Virus record (IMG/VR): IMGVR_UViG_3300033067_001461
Coordinates: 1 to 27,948 of that record
DNA length: 27,948 bases
DNA from: a virus
Taxonomy: Duplodnaviria; Caudoviricetes
Direction: 5' to 3' (one strand)
Positions 4,607 through 26,235 of this stretch are shown here, in pieces. How positions within the stretch are numbered: position 1 is the first letter of the stretch; each line of letters begins with the position of its first letter. The position numbers and the translations under genes were made by a program. The notes below the pieces were generated by a model that made no database searches, had not been told where the DNA came from, and saw only the letters and a list, made by a program, of their open reading frames with translations.

Positions 4607-6820
4607 CTATGCGAGGCTCTCTTTGACTACCGAGTAATTAGGCAGCTTTAAAAAGCCTTCTAGCCACTCGTCAGCAACCGACTCCCAAGAATAGTCCGTA
4701 GGATCAATGGAAACTCGTTCCCAAGCTTTAGTCTCCAAGGCCGTCTCAAGCGCTTTGGCCCATTCATCGTACTGGCTTTCAGTCTCACAATCGATATCGA
4801 GGATAGTAGCCATCCCAGCCATCTCTGCTGGCCCAAGCGTATCTTGCAATGCGCCAAGTCGACGAGTGATCGGGTAGGTCCCAGCACAAAGCATCTCGAT
4901 GGCTGTGATGCAGAAGGTCTCAATAAAGTTAGCTGGATGCAGCCAGATCGACGCCTCTTTAAAGTGCTCAGCCAAGACATCCTGCTGCACGTTGCCATGA
5001 TACTTGATCCAAGGTCTATCCTTGACCATGGCCTCAAGCCGATCTGCCATTTCACTCAGACCGAACTTACGTAGGTTGTCGAACCCATAGAACACATGTA
5101 GTTCCAGCTCGGGGTACTTACCAATAAGCCGATCCATGATTCTGATAGCCCTGTCAAGCCCACGATCCGGACTAGACGGGAATACGATCTTAAATGGCTT
5201 CTTAGTCGGACGTGGCCCCATGAATCGCTTTGGATCAATCCCATTTCGAGTAATCTGAATCTTTTCTTCTGGGATGCCTTGGATAGCCTGGACGTATCTT
5301 GAGTGGAACGGACTTAAACATAGGAGCTTTTTGTACTGAGCCGTTTGCTCACCATTCAATGCCATCAGGTCATGGCACCAGAAGTACGTAGGAGCGTCGG
5401 TTAACTTCATGTTGTGACGCCACGCAATGTGAACAACCGGTTTGTTCGCCTTGAAGTAAAGCGGCATCTCTTTGCTAGGGATGTACTCGACACCGTCTAT
5501 TGTCTTAGCTACAGAACGCTCATTAAAGACCTTCACAGGACGCCCTGTGAGCTTATGAAGCCAATAAGCCATATGAATCGCAGCAGTCTCAGATCCACCG
5601 ACACCCTTCTCTTTAGCAATGTCAGCATCCCATTCATACGGGCCTGGGTGAGGGCATGAGATTACAATGTCGTCACATTCTACAGATTTTGAGAAGTTTG
5701 TGAGGTCCCTGACCCGAGAGATCTCTCCCAAAATAGCGTTAGTCTCTTCATTTGGCCTAGTTTTCATCGCTTCGAAGGCCGCGTTCTCTGCTTTGTCCCA
5801 TTGTCCCAAATGGGCATAAACCTTGGCCAACTGATTGTTAGGATAAACGCCGTAAGCATCTTCATGACTGAAGATAGGACCGGCCATCCCGTTCTGCACC
5901 GCTCCATGGTTGATGCAGGCCCTGGCGGCAGCATACTCAGGGATGGCATCTACTATGCGCCCCATCTTTGCGTAGCAATCCCCAATAGAAATGCGGAATT
6001 CAGCCCTGTTTGGAGCCAGCTGAACGCCTGTAAGAGCTACTTCAATGGCTCGATCCCATTGCTGGGCAGACATGTAGCTATAAACTGCATATTGAATAGC
6101 TAGAGTCCTATCGTGCAGCTCTGTTGCTGGATCGGAAGCGGCCATCATTAACCAATGGACCGCATCCACAGGCTTACCGGCTTCAAAAAGCTCTTTACCG
6201 TAGTAATACTTCATCCGTGGATCAAGCTTGTCTTTGCGGCCTTCAAAAAGGCGTAGATTGCGGGATCTATCCTTCTTCATGTCCGTTTCAGTGCGCATGT
6301 GCTTCACAGACCACGTTGGGATGTACTGTGGGCGCACTTGTTTGCCATAAGGAGAGATCGGCAGGATCCCCTCATGCACAAAGTATCGCCAAGACATGCC
6401 TAGATCTCTTTTAATCACCCGCTCTCGTGCAAATGAGCAGACGGGGAGACCTGTTTTAACGTCACTGGCGTAGTGATAGGTAGCCAACCAGTAGTCAGCA
6501 AGGCCCATTGCCTCATCCCGCCAACGGATGAAGGCATCTTTACCTTGCAGTGTGTCATCCAAATCTAGCCAGCAGATGTAATCAGTGGTGGGGTGTTGAA
6601 AAGCAGCGTTCCGAGCAGCAGCAAAATCATCAATCCAATCGAAATGATGAATAATAGCGCCGCGCGCTTTAGCCATTTCAACCGTTCGGTCCGTGCTGCC
6701 CGTGTCTGTGAAGTGGACTTCATCAAAACACCCTTCGATTGAGTCAAAGAATTGGGTGATGTTCTCTTCTTCATTCTTGGCAATCACTGCCAAGGCAATA
6801 CTAGGCCTAATAGGCTTCAT
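4607..6820 (-). CDS. Bifunctional glycosyltransferase: GT2 (SunS-like) + TPR repeats + GT4-like GT-B domain
   Basis: IAKNEE, DTGSTDRT, WIDDFAAARN, WLDLDD (DxD) and VHE in GT2; TPR-like helices (YYYGKELF..., QLAPNRAEF..); GGSETA, SSPDRGL and ETFCITAIE (ExxxxxxxE) in GT4. Confidence 0.9.
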   Translation of the reverse strand: MKPIRPSIALAVIAKNEEENITQFFDSIEGCFDEVHFTDTGSTDRTVEMAKARGAIIHHFDWIDDFAAARNAAFQHPTTDYICWLDLDDTLQGKDAFIRWRDEAMGLADYWLATYHYASDVKTGLPVCSFARERVIKRDLGMSWRYFVHEGILPISPYGKQVRPQYIPTWSVKHMRTETDMKKDRSRNLRLFEGRKDKLDPRMKYYYGKELFEAGKPVDAVHWLMMAASDPATELHDRTLAIQYAVYSYMSAQQWDRAIEVALTGVQLAPNRAEFRISIGDCYAKMGRIVDAIPEYAAARACINHGAVQNGMAGPIFSHEDAYGVYPNNQLAKVYAHLGQWDKAENAAFEAMKTRPNEETNAILGEISRVRDLTNFSKSVECDDIVISCPHPGPYEWDADIAKEKGVGGSETAAIHMAYWLHKLTGRPVKVFNERSVAKTIDGVEYIPSKEMPLYFKANKPVVHIAWRHNMKLTDAPTYFWCHDLMALNGEQTAQYKKLLCLSPFHSRYVQAIQGIPEEKIQITRNGIDPKRFMGPRPTKKPFKIVFPSSPDRGLDRAIRIMDRLIGKYPELELHVFYGFDNLRKFGLSEMADRLEAMVKDRPWIKYHGNVQQDVLAEHFKEASIWLHPANFIETFCITAIEMLCAGTYPITRRLGALQDTLGPAEMAGMATILDIDCETESQYDEWAKALETALETKAWERVSIDPTDYSWESVADEWLEGFLKLPNYSVVKESLA

Positions 6821-13587: not shown

Positions 13588-13914
13588 ATGGCAATTGAAT
13601 TTAGAGTGGAGCGCGGGTGGTCATTCTTTGGGTACCAAGCCTGGATCTTGGATTATCGAGATGGGAAAACCCACATAGCCAAACCCATGGAGTTGGAGTT
13701 TGTCCCAATTGCTGAGCATGAGCGGTTACCTGAACCCACTCTGAAAATTAGCCATCAGCTAGCCATCGAATTTATTCCAAAGCTTAAAAAAGCACTCGCT
13801 GGGGTTACTTGGCCAAACGATAAAGAAGAATATGAAGTTCAGAAGCGTGTTGAAAGCGCAATGCAGGCGCACATCGATTCACTTAAGTTGGTCATTGATA
13901 GGACTGTGAAATGA
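13588..13914 (+). CDS. Hypothetical protein (opposite-strand island)
   Basis: 108-aa ORF, ATGA-coupled to the next gene. Confidence 0.65.
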   Translation: MAIEFRVERGWSFFGYQAWILDYRDGKTHIAKPMELEFVPIAEHERLPEPTLKISHQLAIEFIPKLKKALAGVTWPNDKEEYEVQKRVESAMQAHIDSLKLVIDRTVK

Positions 13915-14093
13915 GAGAGATGAGACTGATCGACTTTCTCTCAAAAAGCGGGATATCTGTGATTGTCCCCGTTGGTCTCGACCCAGCAAAGACCCTAAGT
14001 AAGATCTATGTCCGGATCCAGGACTATGACCAGGGTGGGACTGTTGAGAAGGGCTGCGATGAAGCATGGGAAAAAAACGGGGAGCGCAAGTGA
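13911..14093 (+). CDS. Hypothetical protein ending EAWEKNGERK
   Basis: 60-aa ORF coupled on both sides. Confidence 0.5.
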   Translation: MREMRLIDFLSKSGISVIVPVGLDPAKTLSKIYVRIQDYDQGGTVEKGCDEAWEKNGERK

Positions 14094-14299
14094 CCAACAG
14101 TAACAAACCTCAACAACATTTGGTTATTTTGACACCTGAAGAAGTAGCAGAGAGACTAAAAATCCCTTTAAGGGGATGTTACACGTTATTAAAAAAACGG
14201 GAACTTAAACACTTTCGAGTGGGAAAACTCATCCGAGTTCTTGAGACTGATCTAGTCCGCTATATAAACGATTCTCAGATTAAGTGTTGCGATGAGTGA
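14090..14299 (+). CDS. Excisionase-like winged HTH DNA-binding protein (HTH_17 type)
   Basis: LTPEEVAERLKI..CYTLLKKRELKHFRVGKLIRV..DL..YI is the canonical Xis-like pattern; GTG start overlaps the upstream TGA, GGAG RBS. Confidence 0.85.
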   Translation: MTNSNKPQQHLVILTPEEVAERLKIPLRGCYTLLKKRELKHFRVGKLIRVLETDLVRYINDSQIKCCDE

Positions 14300-14378
14300 C
14301 GTTTTGCCTGACTGCATGATGCCAGATGGAGCTGATCCTTGTGCCGAGGCGTGGGAAAAGAACGGAGAGCGCAAGTGA
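14292..14378 (+). CDS. 28-aa peptide MSDVLPDCMMPDGADPCAEAWEKNGERK
   Basis: Own translation; overlaps both neighbours; synonymous-only divergence from the repeat at 14061 supports coding. Confidence 0.5.
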   Translation: MSDVLPDCMMPDGADPCAEAWEKNGERK

Positions 14379-14497
14379 ATAAACTTAGCCATGAAGCAAA
14401 AGTTGGAGGATGGGTGATACTTATCCTCAGCGTGGGCCCATTTGTATTTCTGCTCTGGCTGCGTGTGATGTTGGGGTTTTGGAGGACTATACAGTGA
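14375..14497 (+). CDS. Small membrane protein (40 aa)
   Basis: GTG start overlapping TGA; hydrophobic WVILILSVGPFVFLLWLRVMLGFW. Confidence 0.45.
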   Translation: MNKLSHEAKVGGWVILILSVGPFVFLLWLRVMLGFWRTIQ

Positions 14498-14540
14498 CCA
14501 ATAGTGCGGGGCGCAAGCTCGACACGTCCCAGGACCTGGG

Positions 14541-14786
14541 ATGAGCAATATTGTGCGTCCACCCAAAGAGAGGTCGAGCTATTCAAAGTATTCCGCTCAT
14601 ACAAATGAGGCCGTGAATCTTGACTTGGTTTTGACAGTCACAAAAGCACGTGAAGCCTACTATCCAGATAATGAGGGCATCCCCGTCATCCGATTTTGGT
14701 TTGGAGATAAAAATTATCACCAATGGTATTTTGATCGCGGAGAAGAGTCGCAGATCGACAATTGGCTGCGGCTACTTGATGGGTGA
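14541..14786 (+). CDS. Hypothetical protein
   Basis: 81-aa ORF in the coupled island. Confidence 0.55.
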   Translation: MSNIVRPPKERSSYSKYSAHTNEAVNLDLVLTVTKAREAYYPDNEGIPVIRFWFGDKNYHQWYFDRGEESQIDNWLRLLDG

Positions 14787-14874
14787 CAACGTCATCATGG
14801 GCGGAGTAGATGCTCCTACAGCTCCACTCGCGATCTGTCTCGCTGCGCTTAAGGCAGTTGGAGTTGAAGTATGA
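14779..14874 (+). pseudogene. Short ORF or remnant carrying the C-terminal TAPLAICLAALKAVGV motif of phage ABA-sandwich (BC1872-like) proteins
   Basis: Motif recognised from memory; only ~31 aa from the ATG at 14779; the rest of the domain appears absent. Confidence 0.4.
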
Positions 14875-15068
14875 CCGTCAGAGAATTAAGAGAAGAGCTT
14901 CTAAGATTCGATCAAAGTAGACCAGTTTGGGTCGCCACTGGCTGCGAGGCTTGGGCATGGGGCGAACTGCAAAGCCTTTTCGTAAACAAACTGAACGGGT
15001 TTGTAGTGCTTACCGACCTTACGGTTGAGAGCGCTAATTTTAGAATTAAAAACGGTCAAGCCAAGTGA
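14871..15068 (+). CDS. Hypothetical phage protein (MTVRELREEL..FD...PV type)
   Basis: Common small phage protein N-terminus; GGAG RBS; ATGA overlap. Confidence 0.6.
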   Translation: MTVRELREELLRFDQSRPVWVATGCEAWAWGELQSLFVNKLNGFVVLTDLTVESANFRIKNGQAK

Positions 15069-15077
15069 CTCAACGCC

Positions 15078-17165
15078 TCAACCAACCCCAGGAGCCGGTG
15101 GAGCCCCAGCAGAAGTAGCTGCTTCTCGCTTGGCTAACGAAGCCCCTAATTTATCTCCACCCGGAGTCGCTGGAGCGTTGGGATCAGCATTCGCAACTTC
15201 TTCTTCAGGAGACTGTGGCGGTGGGCCGTGCTCTTCAGCGGTCTCAATCGAAGGATCCTGAAGCTTCATCATCATCTGGGTGTGGAGATCAATAGATGCC
15301 AGGAGAAGGGCCTGCTTCTCTGGATCCAGTGAATCGTACTTGTCAGACATCCGGTAATCATTGAGCTCTTGAATCGCAAGGATGTGCGGATCGAGCTTAT
15401 TGATCTTTGGAAGCTGACCCTTTTCAATAGCTTGGATCTCTTTTTGAACCATGCCCATCTGAAGTGTGCGGGTTTTCCAGATCTCAGCAACATCCCCGTA
15501 TTCAAGCATCCCAAGAACATTGGACCGGACTTGTGGATCCTGTGGGTCACCCAATAGGCCCTGAGTGTAGGCGTTCAGCAGTTCTTGACGGCGTAAGACC
15601 TTGGATCCAGGGATGGTGGAGCCACGGATAACCGTAACGTCGTGGTTGCCCTTAATGTCTGCACCAACGAACTGACGCACCGTGTACTCCATGCCGTCTC
15701 CGGCAAGCTTGAGTAGACGTGGAGTTTTAATGAACCGTTCTACGTTGAGAAGGATCAGGTTACCGATAGCGGCGTAAGCCTCTTCATGCTGCTCTGTGAC
15801 TACACCGATGCGGGTGTCATCTTGCTCAGTGAGGAGCTGCATCCCGATAGCAGGGATCGAGGCGCTCGGCAGAGTACCCTTGGACACCTCTGAGATGCCC
15901 ATGATGTCGTTGATATTCTTCTCGTGGACCGAGTCCTCGTTATAAGCGTAGGATGGGATGTTGGGCATCACCATCGGTGTAGGAGGCCCGCCATTGGGGG
16001 TTTGGTCGTAGTAGACCACTTCCCCAGACTGATCGTTTAAAGCTTCCTGCTGAAGCCCTGATCCACGTGCAGCCAAAATCTTGCCGGTCAGAAGTCGATT
16101 GACCCACTCGGCGCGCTTCTGAAGGGTACGGTTGTATTGGTCCTGGCTAGGACGAGCGTGGGTGACTGTTGACTCGCTGTAATACTTCCCTGCAATGAGA
16201 ATGTCGTCGAATTTAACGAGTGGGAACTTGCCCACTGGGAGAGCTTTGTTCTCGAGCAACACACCGTTGGCGCTCACTACCATGCGGCCATTCGGGTGCT
16301 TAGGGGACCTGCGCTCGTAGTACACCACTTCGATTGCTGAGTTCTTAAAGCGTGCTTCAGCCGTACCAGAAGTGAACCCTTGAGTGGTTAGCCCATTGAT
16401 ACGGGACTCGTACTGGGCAGAGAGCAGCCAGGCGCCCTCTTCTTTGACCAACGCACCGCGCTCGGGATAACGGTTCTGGAAGTAATCAAGCTTCCTGACC
16501 TTTGCCTTAATCACCCACTGGGCTTCTTCCAGGGTCTTTGCAAGGGGGTCTGGGAACACTTCAAAAGGGCTGACCACATTGACTGAGATGTCACCCTCGT
16601 AGCCAACCAGCTCACCTGTGGTTGGATCAACCATGGGCTCACCCTTATCTGGGTCGTAAGAGACCTCCAGATAGCCGTGGCCGCATTGCTGCACCCACAT
16701 CAAGAGGTCTAGACGCTTACGGTTGATCTTCTCCAGATCCCAGTACTGATTAAGAATCTGGAGACCCAGTTTGGCTGCTTCTTTGTCATCGTTAGATGGG
16801 GAGCCAGGCTTCACGTCATACTGTGGAGCATTCTTAGCCAACCGCGCTAAGCGATTCTGAAGAGTGGGAAGGATCTTGTTAACGTGGATGCGGTTCCGGC
16901 CCTGGAAGCGGTAGGCTTTGTCACTTGGGCGGAAAGAGCGGGAGTTGGTGTCGTAGTACACGCCATCATAGCCAAGCACGTAGGCGATGTTGGTCATCCA
17001 CACTCCCTCATGGGAGACACGGGAAGCAGCGGCTCTAGACTCTTCTAGCCGGGTACGGCAAAACCCGACGAGGTCTTGCTCCTCAGTGGTCTGGTCGTTA
17101 ATAGTTTTGGGCGCCGAATCTCCCCCAACTCCAAGTTTCGCTAGAGCAGATTCCAATAGACCCAA
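15078..17165 (-). CDS. Portal protein (P22-like)
   Basis: 695 aa after the terminase; VNKILP, VVSPFEVFPDP, SQDQYNR, GISEVSKG, AIGMQLLTEQDD motifs; TTG start with GGGGG RBS. Confidence 0.88.
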   Translation of the reverse strand: MGLLESALAKLGVGGDSAPKTINDQTTEEQDLVGFCRTRLEESRAAASRVSHEGVWMTNIAYVLGYDGVYYDTNSRSFRPSDKAYRFQGRNRIHVNKILPTLQNRLARLAKNAPQYDVKPGSPSNDDKEAAKLGLQILNQYWDLEKINRKRLDLLMWVQQCGHGYLEVSYDPDKGEPMVDPTTGELVGYEGDISVNVVSPFEVFPDPLAKTLEEAQWVIKAKVRKLDYFQNRYPERGALVKEEGAWLLSAQYESRINGLTTQGFTSGTAEARFKNSAIEVVYYERRSPKHPNGRMVVSANGVLLENKALPVGKFPLVKFDDILIAGKYYSESTVTHARPSQDQYNRTLQKRAEWVNRLLTGKILAARGSGLQQEALNDQSGEVVYYDQTPNGGPPTPMVMPNIPSYAYNEDSVHEKNINDIMGISEVSKGTLPSASIPAIGMQLLTEQDDTRIGVVTEQHEEAYAAIGNLILLNVERFIKTPRLLKLAGDGMEYTVRQFVGADIKGNHDVTVIRGSTIPGSKVLRRQELLNAYTQGLLGDPQDPQVRSNVLGMLEYGDVAEIWKTRTLQMGMVQKEIQAIEKGQLPKINKLDPHILAIQELNDYRMSDKYDSLDPEKQALLLASIDLHTQMMMKLQDPSIETAEEHGPPPQSPEEEVANADPNAPATPGGDKLGASLAKREAATSAGAPPAPGVG

Positions 17166-17185
17166 AGATTAGCGCCCCCTGTGGG

Positions 17186-17425
17186 TTATAGCGGGCCCAC
17201 GCCCCCGGTCAGCCGGTTTAACTCCTCCAGCGAACCGTCGTCGATCGGTACCCGCACGATATCTGACTGTGGCGCTTTGGGCTCAGATAGTTGCTTTGAT
17301 ACTTGGTACTCATGATAATTGCGACTCATGAGTTTATCCAGAAGCTTTTGAGTCTCTCTGGCGTGAAGAATATTCTGTACGATCAATAGCGTTGCCAGCA
17401 ACATGATCAAACCCGCTTCAACCAT
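17186..17425 (-). CDS. Small protein with N-terminal transmembrane segment
   Basis: Start placed at MVEAGLIMLLATLLIV (GAGGAG RBS); KLLDKLMSRNYHEY motif. Confidence 0.6.
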   Translation of the reverse strand: MVEAGLIMLLATLLIVQNILHARETQKLLDKLMSRNYHEYQVSKQLSEPKAPQSDIVRVPIDDGSLEELNRLTGGVGPL

Positions 17426-17597
17426 CGCCAAGCTCCTCATATAAATCTCTGACATCCTGCATAAAGACAGTGTCTTGATCCGTCCACTCGTCGGAGCTGT
17501 CCTTCTCTATAAAACGATCAAGAACACTCTCAACCAGTTCACTCAGTGAATCTCTAATGCGCAGCAGCTTAAGATACTCCGAGCGAGTTGGATTCAT
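17418..17597 (-). CDS. Hypothetical acidic protein (59 aa)
   Basis: Own translation MNPTRSEYLKLLRIRDSLSELVESVLDRFIEKDSSDEWTDQDTVFMQDVRDLYEELGDG; fills the gap, coupled on both sides. Confidence 0.55.
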   Translation of the reverse strand: MNPTRSEYLKLLRIRDSLSELVESVLDRFIEKDSSDEWTDQDTVFMQDVRDLYEELGDG

Positions 17598-18001
17598 TGA
17601 TTTGTAGGCTTGTCTCCAAGCAGGCGCTGTCCAAGCTGGATCGACTCACGCTTCTCGATGATTTCTGTCATCCCGATTGGGTAAACTTTGATGCTCTTAT
17701 AGACGATGTAACCTGGGGGGCTCCAAGGACGGCCACGCATGATCAGGTCAATGATCTCTGGCTTAGTCTCGATCGACTCTTCCCCAGACATTGCGGCAGT
17801 AGCGATCTTGTTCTCAAACGTGCTCACTGTTTCATTGTCTGGATCAATTCCCTGGGTCTCTGGTGGGAGAAGTTGAACTTCTTGTGGAGCAACAGACTTA
17901 GTATTCAGTCCGCTCAAAACTTTGTCTAGGGTCTCGACCTTGTGCGAGCTGTTGGAGGTACCACTTTTCATGCTCGTTTGTTCCTGGCGCGGGTCTGTCA
18001 T
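17594..18001 (-). CDS. Hypothetical protein overlapping the end of the terminase nuclease gene
   Basis: AAGGGGAG RBS before the ATG at 18001 (MTDPRQ...); GYIVYKSIKVYPIG motif. Confidence 0.55.
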   Translation of the reverse strand: MTDPRQEQTSMKSGTSNSSHKVETLDKVLSGLNTKSVAPQEVQLLPPETQGIDPDNETVSTFENKIATAAMSGEESIETKPEIIDLIMRGRPWSPPGYIVYKSIKVYPIGMTEIIEKRESIQLGQRLLGDKPTNQ

Positions 18002-18716
18002 TTCGATTCTCCCTTTGTGGATAGTAGACAATTTGTTCTAGCTGAGAGAGTGCGTCAAGCAAATCATCGTGGCCCCCTCTTGGAAATGTCCCGTACTCTG
18101 TCTCAAAGTCATGAAGACCCTGAGCAATAAGAATACGTCCCCACTCAAAGCGGGGCACTAATCCCATGATACGGGTCTCCTTACTCTTTGCTACACCCGG
18201 GTTAATCCCCTTTACTGGTAAGATCGTACCGCGCCGTTTCATTTCCTCATCAAGCATATAGAGAAGTGCTTTTTGGTAGGCAACGATCTCAACTCCGATG
18301 CCCTGGCACTGGAACTCTTTCTGGAGGTTAAACATCAGAGTAACGATCTGGGTGGGAGTGATCTTGAACCGCTTGGCGTACTTCAGATACCAGGTCTGAT
18401 CAGCGTCCACATCGATCACTGTGACTGCGGTGTAGTCGGCATCATCCGACTGAGAGATGGCCGGGTCAATGAAAGCGAACGTGTTCTTAATCTGTGGGAG
18501 CTGCTGATAATACTTCAGCCAAGTGCGTTGGAACGGTTGAGATCCATCAGGGATGATCTCGTTGAGGTACTGGTTCGAAAAAAGGTAAGTCCCCATTGTG
18601 CGACGAGCTTCTTGAAGGAACTCGTGGGTGAGACGCTCAGGGAAGAAGAGAGATCCATCATCGTGAATCGCCTTTGCGTAAATCACCGACCACCGTGGGT
18701 CTTTCGGGATCTTCAT
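17898..18716 (-). CDS. terL: Terminase large subunit, C-terminal half (ATPase lid/linker + RNase H-like nuclease)
   Basis: DGSLFFPERL..MGTYLFSNQYLNE lid/linker; FIDPAIS..DADYTAV, GVEIVAYQ, KETRI and FPRGGHDDLLDAL nuclease motifs; no Walker motifs. Confidence 0.9.
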   Translation of the reverse strand: MKIPKDPRWSVIYAKAIHDDGSLFFPERLTHEFLQEARRTMGTYLFSNQYLNEIIPDGSQPFQRTWLKYYQQLPQIKNTFAFIDPAISQSDDADYTAVTVIDVDADQTWYLKYAKRFKITPTQIVTLMFNLQKEFQCQGIGVEIVAYQKALLYMLDEEMKRRGTILPVKGINPGVAKSKETRIMGLVPRFEWGRILIAQGLHDFETEYGTFPRGGHDDLLDALSQLEQIVYYPQRENRNDRPAPGTNEHEKWYLQQLAQGRDPRQSFERTEY

Positions 18717-18865
18717 TACCTCGAAATATAAACCAGGGTCATCAAGCAGGCCACAAGCAGAGCAAGCTGTAGAGACACGAGAGACTTGTACATCTTGATT
18801 GTTTGTTCATATCGCTCAGCTTTGCCGCGCCAGGCTTGGTAGAGGGCTTGATGATCTTGAGTCAT
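18716..18865 (-). CDS. Small membrane protein (49 aa)
   Basis: Own translation MTQDHQALYQAWRGKAERYEQTIKMYKSLVSLQLALLVACLMTLVYISR; AAGGA RBS; TAATG-coupled to terL-C. Confidence 0.55.
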   Translation of the reverse strand: MTQDHQALYQAWRGKAERYEQTIKMYKSLVSLQLALLVACLMTLVYISR

Positions 18866-18880
18866 ACCAATTCCTTTACT

Positions 18881-20824
18881 TTAAGCTTGGGTAATTGTCA
18901 TGTCGTCAAACCAAGCTGACAATGACGTCCCGCCATAAACCTGAAGCTCGATTTCAACCACAGCTTGTTCCGTTGGTGTGAATGAGAAGGAGATTTCTTC
19001 ATAGGTATTAGCTGCTGCAGAGGCCGTAGCAATAAGGTCTGAAGGGGCTCCATCAATCTGACCACCACGCATAAACATTCTTGCAGTGATGCCAGTGGAG
19101 CTGCGCTTTACCCAGATCTTCACGGTAACAGTGCCTGAGCTTAAGCAAGCCACTCTGGCCACAATCAATGAGAGTGGGTAGGTGACGCTAGCGTTGGCTG
19201 ACGTTGGGCTAAACTGCCAGGCAAGTCCTGAGAGCGTATGACGGTTGGAGTCGGCGACACTGACAATGTTCCCAATGTCCCAAAACGTTCTGTTGTCGTT
19301 GTTACTGCCGTTGTAGTGCTCCACTCTGACCACGGCGGCTGTGTAGAGTGTCCCAGAGACAAGTACTGGCGTAGTATCTGTCAAAGTGCCATCGAGAATG
19401 ATGACTTCTCCTCCATCATTTCTGATGCCAGCAGTAGCGTTTGTATCAGAAAAGAAGCTTCTGACTACTAGACTACAACTCGTGGTGTTTTGAATTCCAT
19501 AGCTCCCATTGTTTCTACAATAGAGCGTAGTCCCCATGATGAAGTTAGCAGCGTTCGTCTGCAGACCATTGATCACGTTGTTATCGCAATAGACAGTAGT
19601 GAACTCGTTGTTCTGAGTTTGGATGGTGATCCCGTTACCACCGTTGCTGTCACACCATAAAGACGTCATCGTCAGATTCTTGACGGTAGAGATTAGGCCG
19701 TTTGTGGTGTTGTTGTTTAAATGGCAGGTATCGAAGGTGATGGTATTTCCACCCGTGAAGTTCATCCCCGTGGTGTAGCGATAAAGTGAGATCTTAGAGA
19801 ATGTTAGGAAGGCGATTGTGCTACCCGTTAAGAACCCTACGCTCCCATTTCTCCCTGTGACATGGGTCTCTCCCGTTTGGGTAGACATGTCTGTCCGGTT
19901 CCACCCGCCAGACGTTACGATTGGAGAACTATCAGTCCCACTGTTTGTGTAGGTATTTAAGTTTGTTGCGGAAGTAGCTAGCGCCGTCTGTATGGGTTCT
20001 CGCTTGTAGGTTGTGACCGTCTCGGTGACACCGCTATAGCCACGCCCCACTGTAGGCAAAGAGTTTGGATTTGCATCAAGCAATACATTGGTGCCATTGA
20101 TGCTTTGGATCGCAAACCAAGTCTCTCCAGCGGTGTTCTTACCAATCACTGAGTTCAGATTGAGAGAATCAGCAGATGCGGAGGCTTTGCAGGCTAGGAT
20201 ATTGTCTAGACGCACAGTCACGGTGCCAGGGTCCAAAAGAGCCTGGAGCACCACAGATTGAATGCTGTTACCGAGCGCTGCACCATTATCAAAAGTGATC
20301 GCAGTCCACAGATTGACGTTTGGAACAGCTGGGATTGGTATTGTGTTTACGGTGACCAGTCCAGCAGCATCCGAGCATAGGCGCAGCTCCAGGGTGCTCG
20401 CTGCTATAGCTACCGTCGTGATGAACCAAAACGATACCTGTTGATATGCGGAGAAGTCTGTAGCTGAAAACGATTCTCTTGCTACCTGGCCAGTCACGAA
20501 GGCTGCAGCTATAGCCATTTGAGCAGAGAAAGAACCCTGCTTTCTAGTAGCATTAGCAGTAGTGGTAACGTTGACCGCAGCTGTCCATGCTGTCTCACAA
20601 AGTGAGATGTTGGCGGTGAGGGCAGATGCCAGCGTTACCGTCTTAGATGTCGAGTTCCATGTGGCGTTACCAATAGACGTTGCATCCGGAGATGCCATGA
20701 CTCTGATAACGTCACCAGCGCCCGCTATGGAGTTAGCTGAGGCTAAGGTTTTCTTTCTTAATGCAAAAGTACTCCCGTTGTTACCGTCATTGCCGTTCTC
20801 TAGATCAACGTACAGAGTACTCAC
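18881..20824 (-). CDS. Right-handed beta-helix (tailspike/pectin-lyase-like) protein
   Basis: N-terminal YVDLENGNDGNNG..KT...GDVIRV motif; Asn-ladder repeats (NNTTNGL, NGGNGI, NNVINGL, NNGSYGI); probable C-terminal carbohydrate-binding-like domain. Confidence 0.7.
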   Translation of the reverse strand: MSTLYVDLENGNDGNNGSTFALRKKTLASANSIAGAGDVIRVMASPDATSIGNATWNSTSKTVTLASALTANISLCETAWTAAVNVTTTANATRKQGSFSAQMAIAAAFVTGQVARESFSATDFSAYQQVSFWFITTVAIAASTLELRLCSDAAGLVTVNTIPIPAVPNVNLWTAITFDNGAALGNSIQSVVLQALLDPGTVTVRLDNILACKASASADSLNLNSVIGKNTAGETWFAIQSINGTNVLLDANPNSLPTVGRGYSGVTETVTTYKREPIQTALATSATNLNTYTNSGTDSSPIVTSGGWNRTDMSTQTGETHVTGRNGSVGFLTGSTIAFLTFSKISLYRYTTGMNFTGGNTITFDTCHLNNNTTNGLISTVKNLTMTSLWCDSNGGNGITIQTQNNEFTTVYCDNNVINGLQTNAANFIMGTTLYCRNNGSYGIQNTTSCSLVVRSFFSDTNATAGIRNDGGEVIILDGTLTDTTPVLVSGTLYTAAVVRVEHYNGSNNDNRTFWDIGNIVSVADSNRHTLSGLAWQFSPTSANASVTYPLSLIVARVACLSSGTVTVKIWVKRSSTGITARMFMRGGQIDGAPSDLIATASAAANTYEEISFSFTPTEQAVVEIELQVYGGTSLSAWFDDMTITQA

Positions 20825-21147
20825 TTAATTGCCGCTCTCACTAGATCAATGTAGGCCTGAGTCTTCTCTAAAACAGCCGCAACTTCTTGATTAAGAGCCT
20901 GAGCGTTTCCGACGATCTCTTGCATGGAGTCTAAAAGAGCAAAAGCCTCCGATGGTGGGACATCCACTGGAGCGTTCAACGTGTCGATGTAGTCTTGAAT
21001 GGCTTGGTTGATCTCATCGGGTGATGACTTACCGTCCAACCCCATGGACGCTACTTCAGACTCAATCCCGTTGGTGATCTTGAAGATTACTAGGATCGTC
21101 CCGTCTGGTCTCTTCTGAATGTCAGCAATGCCAGCGAGTTTCCACAT
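20821..21147 (-). CDS. Hypothetical protein coupled to the beta-helix gene
   Basis: 108-aa ORF; GTGA overlap with the next gene. Confidence 0.6.
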   Translation of the reverse strand: MWKLAGIADIQKRPDGTILVIFKITNGIESEVASMGLDGKSSPDEINQAIQDYIDTLNAPVDVPPSEAFALLDSMQEIVGNAQALNQEVAAVLEKTQAYIDLVRAAIK

Positions 21148-21157
21148 GGTTTCATTC

Positions 21158-21340
21158 CTACTTGGCGTAACTCACAAAAGGTTGTGCGCGATAAGGGAAG
21201 TCCATCAGCGCAAGGTTCGTTGATTGAGTGGTCGCTACCCAACAAAAGGGTTGAGCGTAATAGACAAAGTCCAAGCCCTTGAGTGTGGGTGGGGCACTAG
21301 CGAACCCAAAGAAGACGAATTTTGCTAATGAGTTCATCAT
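21158..21340 (-). CDS. Small protein with internal DFxYxAQPF repeat
   Basis: LDFVYYAQPF and MDFPYRAQPF within 60 aa. Confidence 0.55.
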   Translation of the reverse strand: MMNSLAKFVFFGFASAPPTLKGLDFVYYAQPFCWVATTQSTNLALMDFPYRAQPFVSYAK

Positions 21341-21453
21341 AGCTTGATGTGCACCTTCCTAGAGATGAGCTCTTTCATGTCTTTACGTTGGCGCAGGTAG
21401 GCAATCAGACTCATACAGATCTGCAGGCCCAGTAATAGCTCAATGACGATCAC
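21337..21453 (-). CDS. Small membrane peptide (38 aa)
   Basis: Own translation (GTG start) MIVIELLLGLQICMSLIAYLRQRKDMKELISRKVHIKL; coupled on both sides. Confidence 0.4.
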   Translation of the reverse strand: MIVIELLLGLQICMSLIAYLRQRKDMKELISRKVHIKL

Positions 21454-21752
21454 GGCTGCCCCTCGAATCCTTGGGAGCGTCCTCTTAGCACGGAGACCAC
21501 GGTAGTTGCACTCTGGGCGGCAAGGTAGAGAGTCCCAATCATGTCGAAGCTGCAGATGGCGCTACCCGGCACTACGAACCCTTGGTCCCACAAAGCTGGG
21601 GTGTTTGGGTTCACGATGAGTAGGGTGCCCCCCGACAACCACTCTAGTGAGACGGAGATTTGTCCTGGGCGTACGGAGACGCCAATGATGGATGAGAGGC
21701 CGACTGTGATGCGCTCAGGGATAAAGTCCGCAATGACCTTCTCGCGAGCCAT
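21450..21752 (-). CDS. Small beta-sandwich protein, paralog B
   Basis: MAREKVIADFIPERITVG..SGGTL..GT.YL.A..AT.VV.V.R.RS.GFEG; AGGAG RBS. Confidence 0.7.
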   Translation of the reverse strand: MAREKVIADFIPERITVGLSSIIGVSVRPGQISVSLEWLSGGTLLIVNPNTPALWDQGFVVPGSAICSFDMIGTLYLAAQSATTVVSVLRGRSQGFEGQP

Positions 21753-21761
21753 TAAGTCTCC

Positions 21762-22094
21762 TTAGTTAGAAGCTACGCCGTTAAACCCGCCGGTAGCACC
21801 TTCAAATCCGATAGAGCGGTGCCGGATGATCTGCACGATGGAGGTAGCGCCTGAGGCTACAAGCCAAAAGGTGCCGCCTACACGGATCTCCATAGGAGTG
21901 GAGGGTAGAACATAGCCTGCGGCAAAGCCCACGCCTGCAGCTGGGTGTCCGATAGCAACAGTGCCGCCTGAGACAAACTGGAGAGTAACAAACTCCTGGC
22001 CAGGGAGAGCAGTGACTCCGATAAAGATGGAAGCGCCGTTACCGACGGTAATCCTCTCGGGTAACAAGTCTACTGCAATTGGTTCTCTAGCCAT
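21762..22094 (-). CDS. Small beta-sandwich protein, paralog A
   Basis: MAREPIAVDLLPERITVG..SGGTV..GT.WL.A..AT.IV.I.R.RS.GFEG. Confidence 0.7.
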   Translation of the reverse strand: MAREPIAVDLLPERITVGNGASIFIGVTALPGQEFVTLQFVSGGTVAIGHPAAGVGFAAGYVLPSTPMEIRVGGTFWLVASGATSIVQIIRHRSIGFEGATGGFNGVASN

Positions 22095-22133
22095 GTGGAG
22101 TCCCCCGACTCGTTTTAAACGGTTAGTTGGATG

Positions 22134-22838
22134 TTAAGCGATGAGCCCCTGGCTGGCAATCTCGTTCTCTAGTACCCAGCCTATGATGTCACCCGAGTGG
22201 TATCTAGTCCCAATGACCACCATGGTCCCGCCTGGTTCTAAGATGGCTGTATTCATCCGGTAGTGGTTGATGACCTTTTGCCTGCCCTCTTCAGTACCCG
22301 AATTGTTACCGGAGTTTAAGTCATCCATTATGATGCGGTTGTAGTGCTGACCTACTTTGACAGTTTCTACGCCGCCGCAAGTAATGCTCGCTTCTTTGAG
22401 AGGGACAGTGCGTTGAGCAATGGTTATTTCCCCTTCTGACCAAGGCTCATGTCTGAAGGTTCCAAAGAGGCGAGTGAGAGCTGGATTCTCTAGGTGTGCT
22501 TTGATCTCACGCAGAAAGTTCTTGGAGTTCGAATAGACCTCGCTATCGATAAGGATGCGCTCGTTAGGGTTCCTGAGTAGGCACCAGATAGAGTAGGCCA
22601 CTACGCCCAAGCTGCTCTTAAAACAGCCTCTAGGGACACACAGGAGCTTCCTGAGGGTGTGTGATTCGAGTGCTTGAATGATAGGGCCGTGAGTAGCCCA
22701 GGTAATGTCTTTGTAGCCTAGGAGTTGCTTAGCGGTGAGGTATAGGGACGAGCGATATTCATTGGCCAGCATTCGCTGCACAACCATTGCTTTAACGCTG
22801 GGGTCTTCTTGTTCTAGGCGCTTAAGATGTTCGATCAT
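22134..22838 (-). CDS. terL: Terminase large subunit, N-terminal ATPase half
   Basis: Walker A-like VPRGCFKSS, Walker B IIMDD, coupling motif VVIGTRYH..D; stops ~20 aa after this motif. Confidence 0.9.
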   Translation of the reverse strand: MIEHLKRLEQEDPSVKAMVVQRMLANEYRSSLYLTAKQLLGYKDITWATHGPIIQALESHTLRKLLCVPRGCFKSSLGVVAYSIWCLLRNPNERILIDSEVYSNSKNFLREIKAHLENPALTRLFGTFRHEPWSEGEITIAQRTVPLKEASITCGGVETVKVGQHYNRIIMDDLNSGNNSGTEEGRQKVINHYRMNTAILEPGGTMVVIGTRYHSGDIIGWVLENEIASQGLIA

Positions 22839-23091
22839 CCCTATGAGACAGTATCAGCAGGATCTGCTTAATGTCCTTCTGCATGTCGTCTTGGGATCTT
22901 TGGAGTGATTGTACGACAAAGTCAAAGTGCTTCTGAGCAACGTAGAGGGATGAGATCTCTCCAAGATCAGCAGCAAGTCGGTCGAGCTCTTTTTGGATGT
23001 TTTCGATCTTGTTTTGATTTGCTCCGTAGCTGACAGCAGCAATCATAAGAGAAGTAATTACAGAAAGTGCGACACTCCAGTACTCTGCCAT
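22822..23091 (-). CDS. Membrane-anchored coiled-coil protein (holin/XhlA-like candidate)
   Basis: N-terminal TM segment WSVALSVITSLMIAAVSYG followed by coiled coil. Confidence 0.45.
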   Translation of the reverse strand: MAEYWSVALSVITSLMIAAVSYGANQNKIENIQKELDRLAADLGEISSLYVAQKHFDFVVQSLQRSQDDMQKDIKQILLILSHRDDRTS

Positions 23092-23399
23092 TAGGGTTTA
23101 TTGTGAACTGGAGTTCCTATAACCTCAATGGCCCTTTTCTCTTGTTGCAAGACTTCTAGCTCTTTTAAAAGCTCATCGGCTCGGTCTTTGATGCCCGTAT
23201 CTTCAACCATGGGTAGTGCGGCTGTGGGTTTTGGATAGCAGAACTTAGCCACTTCGAGCCATGCCCAGACCTTGCGAGCGGGATCGTCTAGCTCTCCAAT
23301 GAGGTTTAAGATCTCATCTATGGCGTCAACACCACGGGATCTGAGTTTGTCTCTGACGTAAAAAGAGTCCCGGTTGGGCGCACCTGGTGGTCTAGCCAT
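23091..23399 (-). CDS. terS: Probable terminase small subunit
   Basis: MARPPGAPN start, helical core, AKFCYPKP motif; two genes upstream of the terL ATPase half. Confidence 0.6.
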   Translation of the reverse strand: MARPPGAPNRDSFYVRDKLRSRGVDAIDEILNLIGELDDPARKVWAWLEVAKFCYPKPTAALPMVEDTGIKDRADELLKELEVLQQEKRAIEVIGTPVHNKP

Positions 23400-23405
23400 G
23401 TATTT

Positions 23406-23435
23406 AGTATACACAAAATATTATACGACACGCGT
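23406..23435 (-). promoter_or_regulatory. Putative promoter for the packaging operon
   Basis: ACGCGTGTCG-TATAAT plus a second hexamer TATACT 6 nt before the ATG; no Shine-Dalgarno. Confidence 0.5.
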
Positions 23436-23453
23436 CATAGAGACTTGTGAAAG

Positions 23454-23678
23454 TCACTTCGTCTCTTCCCCCCAGCAACGTTCCACGTAGAACTCTGGGC
23501 TTTTCTCTGGTTCCATTTTGGACTTCTGCTTCTTAGAAGATTGTAACTGTTTGTATTCAGATGACTTTGTGTGTGCGCAGTGAAGTGTTTTGTGGATACA
23601 GGCTAAGCGTGAGGACTCTGTGTTTTCTGTGTTGCAGAGGATAGCGGCGAGGTAGACGGCTGGTAGTAGTGCGGGCAT
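23454..23678 (-). CDS. Small Cys-containing protein with signal-like N-terminus
   Basis: MPALLPAVYLAAILC; 4 Cys; AAGGA RBS. Confidence 0.5.
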   Translation of the reverse strand: MPALLPAVYLAAILCNTENTESSRLACIHKTLHCAHTKSSEYKQLQSSKKQKSKMEPEKSPEFYVERCWGEETK

Positions 23679-23693
23679 TGGTTGATCCTTTGG

Positions 23694-23906
23694 TTAGTGC
23701 ATTTGTCTTAAAGCTTCTTCACAGGCTCTTAATAGATCCAGAGCTTCATAAAGTCGCCTGATAGCGACACTCCGTTGTCTTCTTAGAGTTCGGACTCGGT
23801 CAACAGCTGCGGTGCCGTCTGTGCCCAGTTGTTTTCTAAGGAGCTCTATTTCAGCCTCTAGTTCTCTGATCTTTTGTTCTTCTGCTGTGTTGGCGACTAG
23901 GTTCAT
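23694..23906 (-). CDS. Small coiled-coil protein
   Basis: Start placed at MNLVANT (ATGA overlap with the resolvase stop). Confidence 0.55.
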   Translation of the reverse strand: MNLVANTAEEQKIRELEAEIELLRKQLGTDGTAAVDRVRTLRRQRSVAIRRLYEALDLLRACEEALRQMH

Positions 23907-24382
23907 AAAAATATTTGTGTGGGGTCTATGGATCCACATGGTCCCAAAGGGATGGCGCTTACGTGTTGGTGCCCGATAGAGCCTCTCGTACCGTAAGCAG
24001 CAGCGAGAGTAGAAGCAGGAATAAAGATGACGTGGTTGATGAGTCTAAGCCAGATGACATACCCAGCTATAGCTCCGCAGTGAACGTGTGGGAGCATTTC
24101 ATCGATCTGGTGAGGCTCTATTGCTGAATGTGGGAAGAAGGCGCCCGCTATGCTTTTGGTGTCCAAAAGAGCGGTACGCCCTTTATGAGTCACTACCCAG
24201 TCCCATGGGGTTTTGACTTGTATAAGCTTTTTAAGCCCTACGCGTTTGCAGCCTTCTGGGAAACGAGTGATGGCTAGGCCTTTATTATGCCCACAGGAAC
24301 GAACGAACACCTCTTCAAAGGCTTGGCCATGTCTTTTGGCACTAAGCCCAGCCTGACGGCGTTTAGGATTACTCAGAGGCAT
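23903..24382 (-). CDS. RecU-like Holliday junction resolvase (PD-(D/E)xK nuclease)
   Basis: HGQAFE..., PWDWV...ALLDTKS...F....I..HQ..EM....GAIAGYVI matches the RecU pattern. Confidence 0.75.
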   Translation of the reverse strand: MPLSNPKRRQAGLSAKRHGQAFEEVFVRSCGHNKGLAITRFPEGCKRVGLKKLIQVKTPWDWVVTHKGRTALLDTKSIAGAFFPHSAIEPHQIDEMLPHVHCGAIAGYVIWLRLINHVIFIPASTLAAAYGTRGSIGHQHVSAIPLGPCGSIDPTQIFL

Positions 24383-25492: not shown

Positions 25493-25732
25493 CTATCTAA
25501 CTTTCCTAGCTCTTTTCTTAGAACTAGGAGCCTTTGCCCACCTGACTAAAATTCGCCTGCCAGTCAACATTTCAAGCTGGGAAACTGTGGTCTGTAAATG
25601 GGATACTAGCTCTGAAGCTTTAATAAAAACCGGATCAGTTTCTAAGACCTTTTGCACCTGAGCAGCTATCTTTCGATCCTTTGGGTTCTTGGCACTTACT
25701 TTAACTATTCTTTGCGCGGAGTATCTGCTCAT
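25493..25732 (-). CDS. Basic hypothetical protein
   Basis: AAGGAG RBS; ATGA overlap with the RNase H stop. Confidence 0.55.
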   Translation of the reverse strand: MSRYSAQRIVKVSAKNPKDRKIAAQVQKVLETDPVFIKASELVSHLQTTVSQLEMLTGRRILVRWAKAPSSKKRARKVR

Positions 25733-26235
25733 TGTTGCTCCTTGAGCCAAGAGATTGATCTACACGTTCTATCAACCAAGGACGTCCTCAAAAGAGTTCT
25801 TTTTCTTGCTACCTCAGCAAGATGATCAACTCGTTCATTCATCACATCTCCAGAGTGTCCTCTAACCCACTCAAACTCTATGAGTATTGACTGCATCTCC
25901 CAATCTAAAGACTTCCATAAATCAATATTCTTAATGCCACCAATTTTGGTCCACCCAGAGCTCTTCCATTTTGCTAGCCATTTAGTGCATCCATTAATTA
26001 CATACTCGCTATCACTGACGACTTTGAGGGCTAATCCATAGGATTTATTAGCTCTAATCGCTTCAATAACAGCGATCATTTCCATTCTATTATTTGTTGT
26101 TTCGTCCCCACCAAAACCCATTCCGTGGGAGAACTCTGTACACCAGGCCCATCCACCACTCCCTGGATTTGGGAAACAAGACCCATCTGTCCATATCTTT
26201 AATTCGTTCAATCCACATTTCCGTTTCTTCCCCAT
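25729..26235 (-). CDS. rnhA: Ribonuclease HI
   Basis: WTDGSCFPNPGSGGWAW, TTNNRMEM, SDSEYVINGCTKW, KNIDLWK, WVRGHSGDVMNERVD: all D/E/D/H/D catalytic residues present. Confidence 0.95.
   Translation of the reverse strand: MGKKRKCGLNELKIWTDGSCFPNPGSGGWAWCTEFSHGMGFGGDETTNNRMEMIAVIEAIRANKSYGLALKVVSDSEYVINGCTKWLAKWKSSGWTKIGGIKNIDLWKSLDWEMQSILIEFEWVRGHSGDVMNERVDHLAEVARKRTLLRTSLVDRTCRSISWLKEQQ

Follow-up and report, generated by a model that had tools for sequence, protein, structure and literature searches.

The herpesvirus gene UL15 is split into exons, and its pieces are rejoined by splicing. In phages, group I introns split the terL genes of Jug phages, for which splicing is seen in RNA reads (PMC12880540), and split-intein terminases exist, such as the GOS terminase (PMC2677866). 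The latter source also describes Aeh1 nrdA, an enzyme that works in two pieces without splicing and has a gene nested between its halves (PMC2677866). Two terminase genes are mentioned for the Arthrobacter phage KellEzio (cluster AT, KU647626; PMC5513430), and Arthrobacter phages of cluster AY are described as carrying the large terminase (TerL) in two consecutive genes (PMC11920828, PMC12820723). In this report, we analyze a stretch of 27,948 nucleotides (nt) of viral DNA (Caudoviricetes; IMG/VR record IMGVR_UViG_3300033067_001461), hereafter the window, in which TerL is divided between two genes with seven ORFs (open reading frames) between them. The window derives from a metagenome and covers part of a phage genome, with an estimated completeness of 73%.

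We conclude, with a probability of roughly 0.8, that this TerL consists of two genes cut in a loop of the ATPase domain and that a normal motor subunit is likely assembled from one copy of each protein.

The two halves of the terminase and the position of the cut

The initial annotation proposed that one ORF of the window (TerL part 1) carries Walker A, Walker B and coupling motifs and then stops, and that a second ORF (part 2) is its continuation with a full nuclease (Table 1). Alignment to hidden Markov models (HMMs) upholds both assignments. The halves match complementary segments of the PHROG 38 terminase, namely positions 294-465 for part 1 (E 7.9e-29) and positions 461-724 for part 2 (E 9.8e-50), and Pfam Terminase_6C is also matched by part 2. 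On the one-chain homologue P0131, part 1 spans residues 26-224 (45% identity), and the alignment of part 2 starts at residue 234, which corresponds to part-2 residue 15 (38% identity). Because the halves map end to end on P0131, the cut falls in a loop of approximately three residues, with nothing lost or duplicated, and the halves are non-redundant, as proposed.

The features expected of a large terminase are present, but distributed over two genes. Part 1 is an ASCE ATPase that has both Walker motifs and the coupling motif, and part 2 contains an RNase H-like nuclease that matches the G20c nuclease (Z 15.8, root-mean-square deviation (RMSD) 2.8, 158 aligned); at the gene level, ATPase, lid and nuclease are not joined in one polypeptide. 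Scanned separately against the NCBIfam equivalog NF033889 (termin_lrg_T7), the halves score 87.2 and 25.3 bits and so fall short of its curated cut-off (150 bits). Downstream of the terminase are the genes for portal, scaffold and capsid. In a phage collection, no match reached 60% identity, and the best among the matches listed had 34%. When part 2 was compared with solved structures by sequence, no terminase was returned; a fold search did recover terminases.

The cut had initially been placed between the ATPase core and the lid. The lid does go with part 2, but the structural model and the alignment to D6E TerL place the cut one strand earlier. Residues 5-230 of the part-2 model align to D6E TerL residues 188-415 (Z 14.9, RMSD 3.7, 201 aligned). 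In D6E, the linker between ATPase and nuclease comprises residues 230-241, and the lid includes Y213 and R224 (PMC5727402). Because the alignment starts at D6E residue 188, ahead of this linker, the ATPase domain extends into part 2 by approximately 57 residues. Part 2 is thus predicted to carry the last (edge) strand of the ATPase sheet as well as the lid, which puts the cut inside the ATPase domain.

Structure prediction of the complex, a check suggested in the initial annotation, docks this edge strand and lid on part 1. The predicted complex scores 0.89, versus 0.00 for the best of three controls; the mark used for this score is reached by 116 of 157 solved pairs and by two of 215 mismatched pairs. 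Runs share at least 91% of contacts, with a partner pLDDT (predicted local distance difference test) of at least 77. The contacts predicted with top confidence pair part-2 residues 9-14 with part-1 residues 63-67, the strand leading into Walker A, and lid residue Y50 with the P-loop residues P69/R70, and no nuclease residue is included among the confident contacts. When part 2 is folded alone, no strand forms at residues 9-14. The model suggests that part 2 would supply the edge strand and lid that part 1 is missing.

This arrangement speaks against another part of the initial annotation, in which the split allows different ATPase and nuclease stoichiometries. Because part 1 is without edge strand and most of the lid, a subunit is likely to function only if both chains are present 1:1, and free stoichiometry is argued against for this reason. 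In P74-26, lid residues are reported to be required for ATP hydrolysis and for subunit contacts in the ring (PMC5389665), which makes a 1:1 heterodimer the more likely form. Both genes would be carried on one late transcript and translated separately, and heterodimers of part 1 and part 2 would form the usual pentamer on the portal. The simplest history of the split is that it was tolerated and then fixed.

We consider it unlikely that the split is instead a selected design, in which the ATPase is switched on only by the strand and lid of the second chain, and a jelly-roll protein encoded in the gap (family F0, see below) acts as third partner. If true, assembly of the packaging motor would be under the control of a switch, and the intact terminase fold could be hidden from Avs-type immune sensors. 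Avs sensors recognize terminases (PMC11564622), and the PhiV-1 terminase solved with Avs3 matches both halves; immune escape by splitting the terminase is speculation.

It is improbable that the two chains associate loosely or unequally, with part 1 forming the ATPase ring and part 2 joining in differing numbers or at differing times. Given separate starts and a freely varying gap, expression levels could differ, and uncoupling could matter, since D6E TerL without its nuclease is described as having an approximately 60-fold higher ATPase turnover (PMC5727402). However, part 2 comprises more than the nuclease, as the edge strand and lid are also on it, and the reported need for the lid in P74-26 makes a ring of part 1 only unlikely to work (PMC5389665).

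Under the 1:1 reading, a ring motor that generates force likely tolerates a break in the chain between its P-loop core and the force-transmitting strand-plus-lid, and the split is relevant to how DNA translocation is driven by movement of the lid. The split also provides a natural complementation system, in which the halves can be separately mutated, labelled and swapped, with the one-chain terminase P0172 (see below) as comparator.

Distribution, conservation and ancestry of the split

Pattern scans of viral, metagenome and genome collections, with one annotated record and the window, yielded 165 loci, and an inclusion threshold of at least 150 bits gave 128 distinct part-1 proteins. For 70 of these, part 2 is on the same locus, and all 70 loci, which include the window and a few near-duplicates, are split. 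No part 2 occurs within the locus stretch examined for the other 58. A stop codon ends 126 of the 128 part-1 ORFs. A scan anchored on part 2, of which the best 80 of 491 were kept, added 68 new locus identifiers with 64 distinct ORFs. Of these ORFs, 38 are split (12 of them new), none is fused, 24 have their own start with no part 1 in view, and two are cut by contig ends. All 82 clade loci with both halves (70 plus the 12 new) are therefore split at the same loop. The gap ranges from -1 to 8,644 nt (median, 1,531), and its contents also vary; a shared breakpoint with a variable insert is what the initial annotation had suggested seeking in relatives. A protein search found 759 relatives of 128-410 amino acids (aa), the best 120 of which have 182-266 aa. 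That TerL is made as two separate polypeptides, as first claimed, is well supported by this comparison of sequences across the clade.

Even the shortest gaps separate two genes. In L055 (9968-11433), the halves are adjacent yet not re-fused, overlapping at TAATG, and in L194, a gap of 78 nt divides them. Because L055 nests among relatives in which the gap measures 1.1 kb, it has likely lost its gap content.

Comparison among relatives indicates that purifying selection acts on both halves. Part-1 residues R70, G71, K74, D172, D173, T211 and R212 and the acidic residues of the part-2 nuclease are invariant in all 59 sequences. For 13 pairs of close relatives, 26 comparisons were made of the ratio of nonsynonymous to synonymous substitution rates (dN/dS). 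In the 13 with an estimable dS, the ratio is 0-0.17; in the other 13 comparisons, dS is saturated, and the nonsynonymous proportion pN is at most 0.23. Two findings that the initial annotation regarded as contrary to the split, relaxed selection and an intact terL elsewhere, were not seen: dN/dS is low in relatives, and the halves are the only two terminase matches in the contig, as far as its 73% completeness extends.

There is no general signal of reassortment between the halves: over 41 loci, pairwise identities of part 1, part 2 and the portal are correlated to the same degree in every combination (Pearson 0.73-0.76); one pair differs by more than 0.15 between matrices. In L048 and L059, part 1 is 84% identical, and part 2 and the portal are 97-98% identical (dS 2.2 versus 0.9), a contrast that may reflect exchange of part 1 with a crossover in the gap.

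Longer homologues of each half were examined for fusions. For part 1, these are 10 intein-bearing proteins, two of which were read and end where part 1 ends (the other eight were judged by length and Pfam), and five one-chain proteins with 39-45% identity. For part 2, a search spanning 523-2,000 aa found four intein-bearing second halves, all read, and 26 others with at most 41% identity; four of the 26 were read, and all four are one-chain. In trees inferred by quick and FastTree methods without P0172, 57 split rows are separated from 11 one-chain homologues by a branch with support of 100 (Shimodaira-Hasegawa-like approximate likelihood ratio test, SH-aLRT), and this grouping holds in all trees, including those of each half taken separately. 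A single fission event is likely, and its probable cause is the insertion of a small jelly-roll gene at the loop.

Several points weigh against our interpretation. P0172, a one-chain terminase of 508 aa on a single 2.1-kb contig, which ranked fifth of the top 150 in an exhaustive search, falls on the clade side of a long branch with full support. The best full-length tree places it outside the 30 split rows (support, 63), and the part-1 tree nests it; P0172 may have branched first or may have arisen by re-fusion. No P0172 locus was found in viral contigs. Because word-based searches missed P0172, more one-chain members may exist. The dN/dS values cover relatives, and the window lineage, which is without a close relative, lies outside these pairs. 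The clade is known from genes alone, and two-chain assembly is a prediction; because halves of a split gene resemble solved one-chain terminases, the score of the complex demonstrates fit, not binding in the cell. Finally, by HMM, F0 is missing from five of the 70 gaps (although visual inspection shows a divergent copy in one of them), as well as from three of the 12 new split loci. Because some gaps are without F0, its role in the origin of the fission is a guess.

For annotation, these results mean that a widespread clade will be overlooked or wrongly placed when sequences are filtered by length or when terL serves as the marker for trees. The scan of prokaryotic genomes found one clade locus only, L018 (JBFFIY010000162.1), an 11-kb contig in a bin labelled Enterobacterales, which may be a misbinned phage and is not evidence of a host.

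The gap, its cargo and the surrounding locus

It is very unlikely that the halves are rejoined, as RNA or protein, into one chain by a self-splicing intron, ribosome bypass or a split intein. Precedents exist in the Jug introns (PMC12880540) and split-intein terminases (PMC2677866), and clade members hold ordinary inteins inside either half. However, an Rfam scan of positions 17000-24000 found no match at E<=1, and the gap is nearly all coding, with ORF lengths totaling 3,356 of 3,417 nt and small overlaps. Junction DNA and peptide tails are unconserved over 70 loci, some of which have stop-start overlaps, and the start of 55 of 67 part-2 genes coincides with a stop codon or is only a few bases away from one; the TAATG-coupled start reported initially for the window is confirmed. 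Part-1 tails after E226 have 4 to 36 residues and are unconserved (59 sequences), and most part-2 proteins begin 1-11 residues ahead of the conserved W strand. The halves of the split-intein terminase intein have about 90-105 and 33-54 residues (PMC2677866), so tails and heads of the lengths seen here leave no room for intein halves. The junctions thus have neither the ribozyme core and conserved splice junctions of group I or II introns nor, with facing ends this short and unconserved, the characteristics of a split intein. Pfam scans revealed no homing endonuclease among six of the seven gap ORFs of the window (the 38-aa ORF was unscanned) or among 57 gap proteins of relatives, although most gap cargo is without a family match, and an ancient endonuclease could be lost. 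The initial report of no intein termini or intron-like sequence at the junctions agrees with these results, and that of no homing endonuclease agrees for the ORFs scanned.

The inteins inside clade halves occur in L074 (8699-10471), L140, P0121-P0130, P0138-P0141 and P0171. Part 1 has two insertion sites, one in Walker A and one ahead of Walker B, both with inteins of LAGLIDADG type, and those in part 2 are of Hint_2 type, at the nuclease HDD motif.

The gap measures 3,417 nt and contains seven same-strand ORFs, in accord with the first count of seven ORFs in 3.4 kb. Across the clade, it is a variable cassette around F0, and the other cargo turns over. F0 (approximately 105 aa) is found by HMM in 64 of 70 gaps, with a 65th case overlapping an ORF that was called too long, and 10 gaps of about 300-400 nt contain no other ORF. 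Its predicted fold is a small beta-sandwich (pLDDT 84) that matches the PM2 spike (Z 9.0, RMSD 3.5, 88 aligned), nearly tied with cupin-like folds and close to non-viral matches at 8.1, and that also resembles many uncharacterized phage proteins and small viral beta-sandwich proteins.

Its persistence in at least 64 of 70 gaps while other cargo turns over, and its presence in none of nine loci with one-chain or distant terminases, could mean that F0 is kept in the gap as a working partner of the split motor, that is, of a three-part machine. We regard this as highly improbable, given that F0 is absent from the close relatives L055 (which has no gap), L061 and L043, is duplicated in 12 of 70 gaps (the window has two copies), is only about 26% conserved per column, and has a fold in which the resemblance to viral beta-sandwich proteins and the PM2 spike is nearly tied with that to cupins.

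Under our preferred reading, the gap became a slot for incoming and outgoing surface-protein and modification genes because no reading frame was left to protect, and gene fission would thereby open a fast-changing cargo slot in a core operon. Pfam matches were obtained for 15 of 57 gap proteins scanned, and include glycosyltransferases, methyltransferases, lectin/LamG, glycine-rich and SO2946-like proteins, and a K1-lyase C-terminal domain. The 647-aa protein of the window has a feature score of 0.94 to a viral NosD/Beta_helix cluster, with no Pfam or PHROG match. The initial description of a gap packed with structural-looking genes thus holds for packing and strand; because only a minority of gap genes are annotated, we infer rather than observe the surface role implied by the term 'surface-protein cassette'. 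The gap of L070 (5524-7092) carries a match, just below the cut-off, to the ADP-ribosyltransferase of polyvalent proteins.

Misassembly or a decaying gene can be regarded as effectively refuted by comparison. The window is of metagenomic origin, with support at the contig level, but 82 of 82 loci share the split, both halves are under apparent selection with invariant catalytic residues, contigs of a second sample bridge both junctions, and none of the eight listed contig differences lies inside either half. In a contig-level comparison, contigs of three public runs revealed no joints in the window, and one public contig, which may be the source of the window, covers the whole stretch.

The head operon is on the minus strand and comprises a RecU-like gene, a candidate small terminase, the terminase, a P22-like portal, a scaffold and the major capsid protein. 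Promoter and terminator scans were at chance level (6 versus 5.8 and 4 versus 6.4). Between portal and scaffold, at 13588-15068, approximately 1.5 kb of small plus-strand ORFs oppose the operon, with shifted GC skew; in relatives, this interval is only 50-450 nt. Amid structural genes, a 737-aa protein with two glycosyltransferase domains is encoded at 4607-6820. Other genes are RNase HI-like (25729-26235), a RecU-like resolvase (23903-24382) and GNAT acetyltransferase-like (1156-1602).

Table 1. Features of the terminase region, in window positions
Feature	Positions	Strand	Remarks
TerL part 1, 234 aa	22134..22838	-	P-loop ATPase core without edge strand and most of lid; Walker A 68-75, Walker B D172-D173, coupling motif T211-R212
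Family F0 copy 1, 110 aa	21762..22094	-	small, all-beta, predicted jelly-roll; possibly virion surface
Family F0 copy 2, 100 aa	21450..21752	-	44% identity to copy 1
38-aa ORF	21337..21453	-	hydrophobic N-terminus; may not be a gene
60-aa ORF	21158..21340	-	short internal repeat; no family match
108-aa ORF	20821..21147	-	no family match
647-aa protein	18881..20824	-	predicted right-handed beta-helix, putatively tailspike-like
49-aa ORF	18716..18865	-	hydrophobic C-terminus; stop overlaps start of TerL part 2 (TAATG)
TerL part 2, 272 aa	17898..18716	-	edge strand 9-14, lid ~15-57, RNase H-like nuclease 58-234; invariant acidic residues D84, E143, D218, D221
P22-like portal protein	15078..17165	-	context
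Candidate small terminase, 107 aa	23091..23414	-	by position only; sole match is a PHROG of unknown function

Comparison with known systems

The one-chain PHROG 38/T7-like terminases (T7 gp19, 4BIJ; PhiV-1, 8DGC; D6E, 5OE8; and those of Pseudomonas PA11-like phages) share domains, motifs and their order with the clade and differ in being a single chain. Aeh1 nrdA and the split T4-like gp43 resemble the clade in a cut within a domain and a gene between the halves (PMC2677866). However, their cuts were made by homing endonucleases, whereas none was seen among the clade gap families scanned, and the clade gap is a variable cassette. The pieces of the Jug intron and GOS split-intein terL genes are rejoined by splicing, and no such element was found in the clade. 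ANMV-1, Leptospira LE4 and a Helicobacter prophage were considered as split precedents and rejected, because each has a single full-length coding sequence. PHROG 4758 and PHROG 5573 are half-length terminase families with ends that match the clade breakpoint, and possibly represent another split at the same loop.

The initial annotation stated that interruptions of TerL are mostly introns or inteins. The arrangement has more precedent than this implies, as cultured Arthrobacter phages carry two-gene terminases. Those of cluster AY (BillyTP gp2/gp3, PP978841; BlueShadow 2/3) differ from the window, however, in that the genes are adjacent and the cut (359 + 198 aa) is at the linker between ATPase and nuclease. 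They also belong to another terminase family, matching PHROG 9 at positions 75-467 and 478-673.

KellEzio, also a cultured phage, is more similar. Its gp4 ('ATPase domain') and gp10 ('nuclease domain') are on the same strand with five genes (1.8 kb) between them, and both match PHROG 38. By motif inspection, its lid is with the nuclease half, so that, as in the window, other genes separate the halves and the lid goes with the nuclease. Unlike in the clade, its inserted genes include a RusA-like resolvase, and its sequence is distant, with no significant part-2 match by hhalign. Because gp4 reaches PHROG 38 position 470 and, by inspection, retains the last strand, its cut is approximately ten residues later, after the last ATPase strand, whereas the cut in the window precedes that strand. 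The KellEzio split is, judging from these sequences, likely an independent fission.

Literature searches for split terminases, conducted without subscription journals and supplements, found no paper on this clade. Separated terminase halves are already known in KellEzio; distinctive to the clade are the cut before the last ATPase strand, the clade-wide spread and the variable cargo slot.

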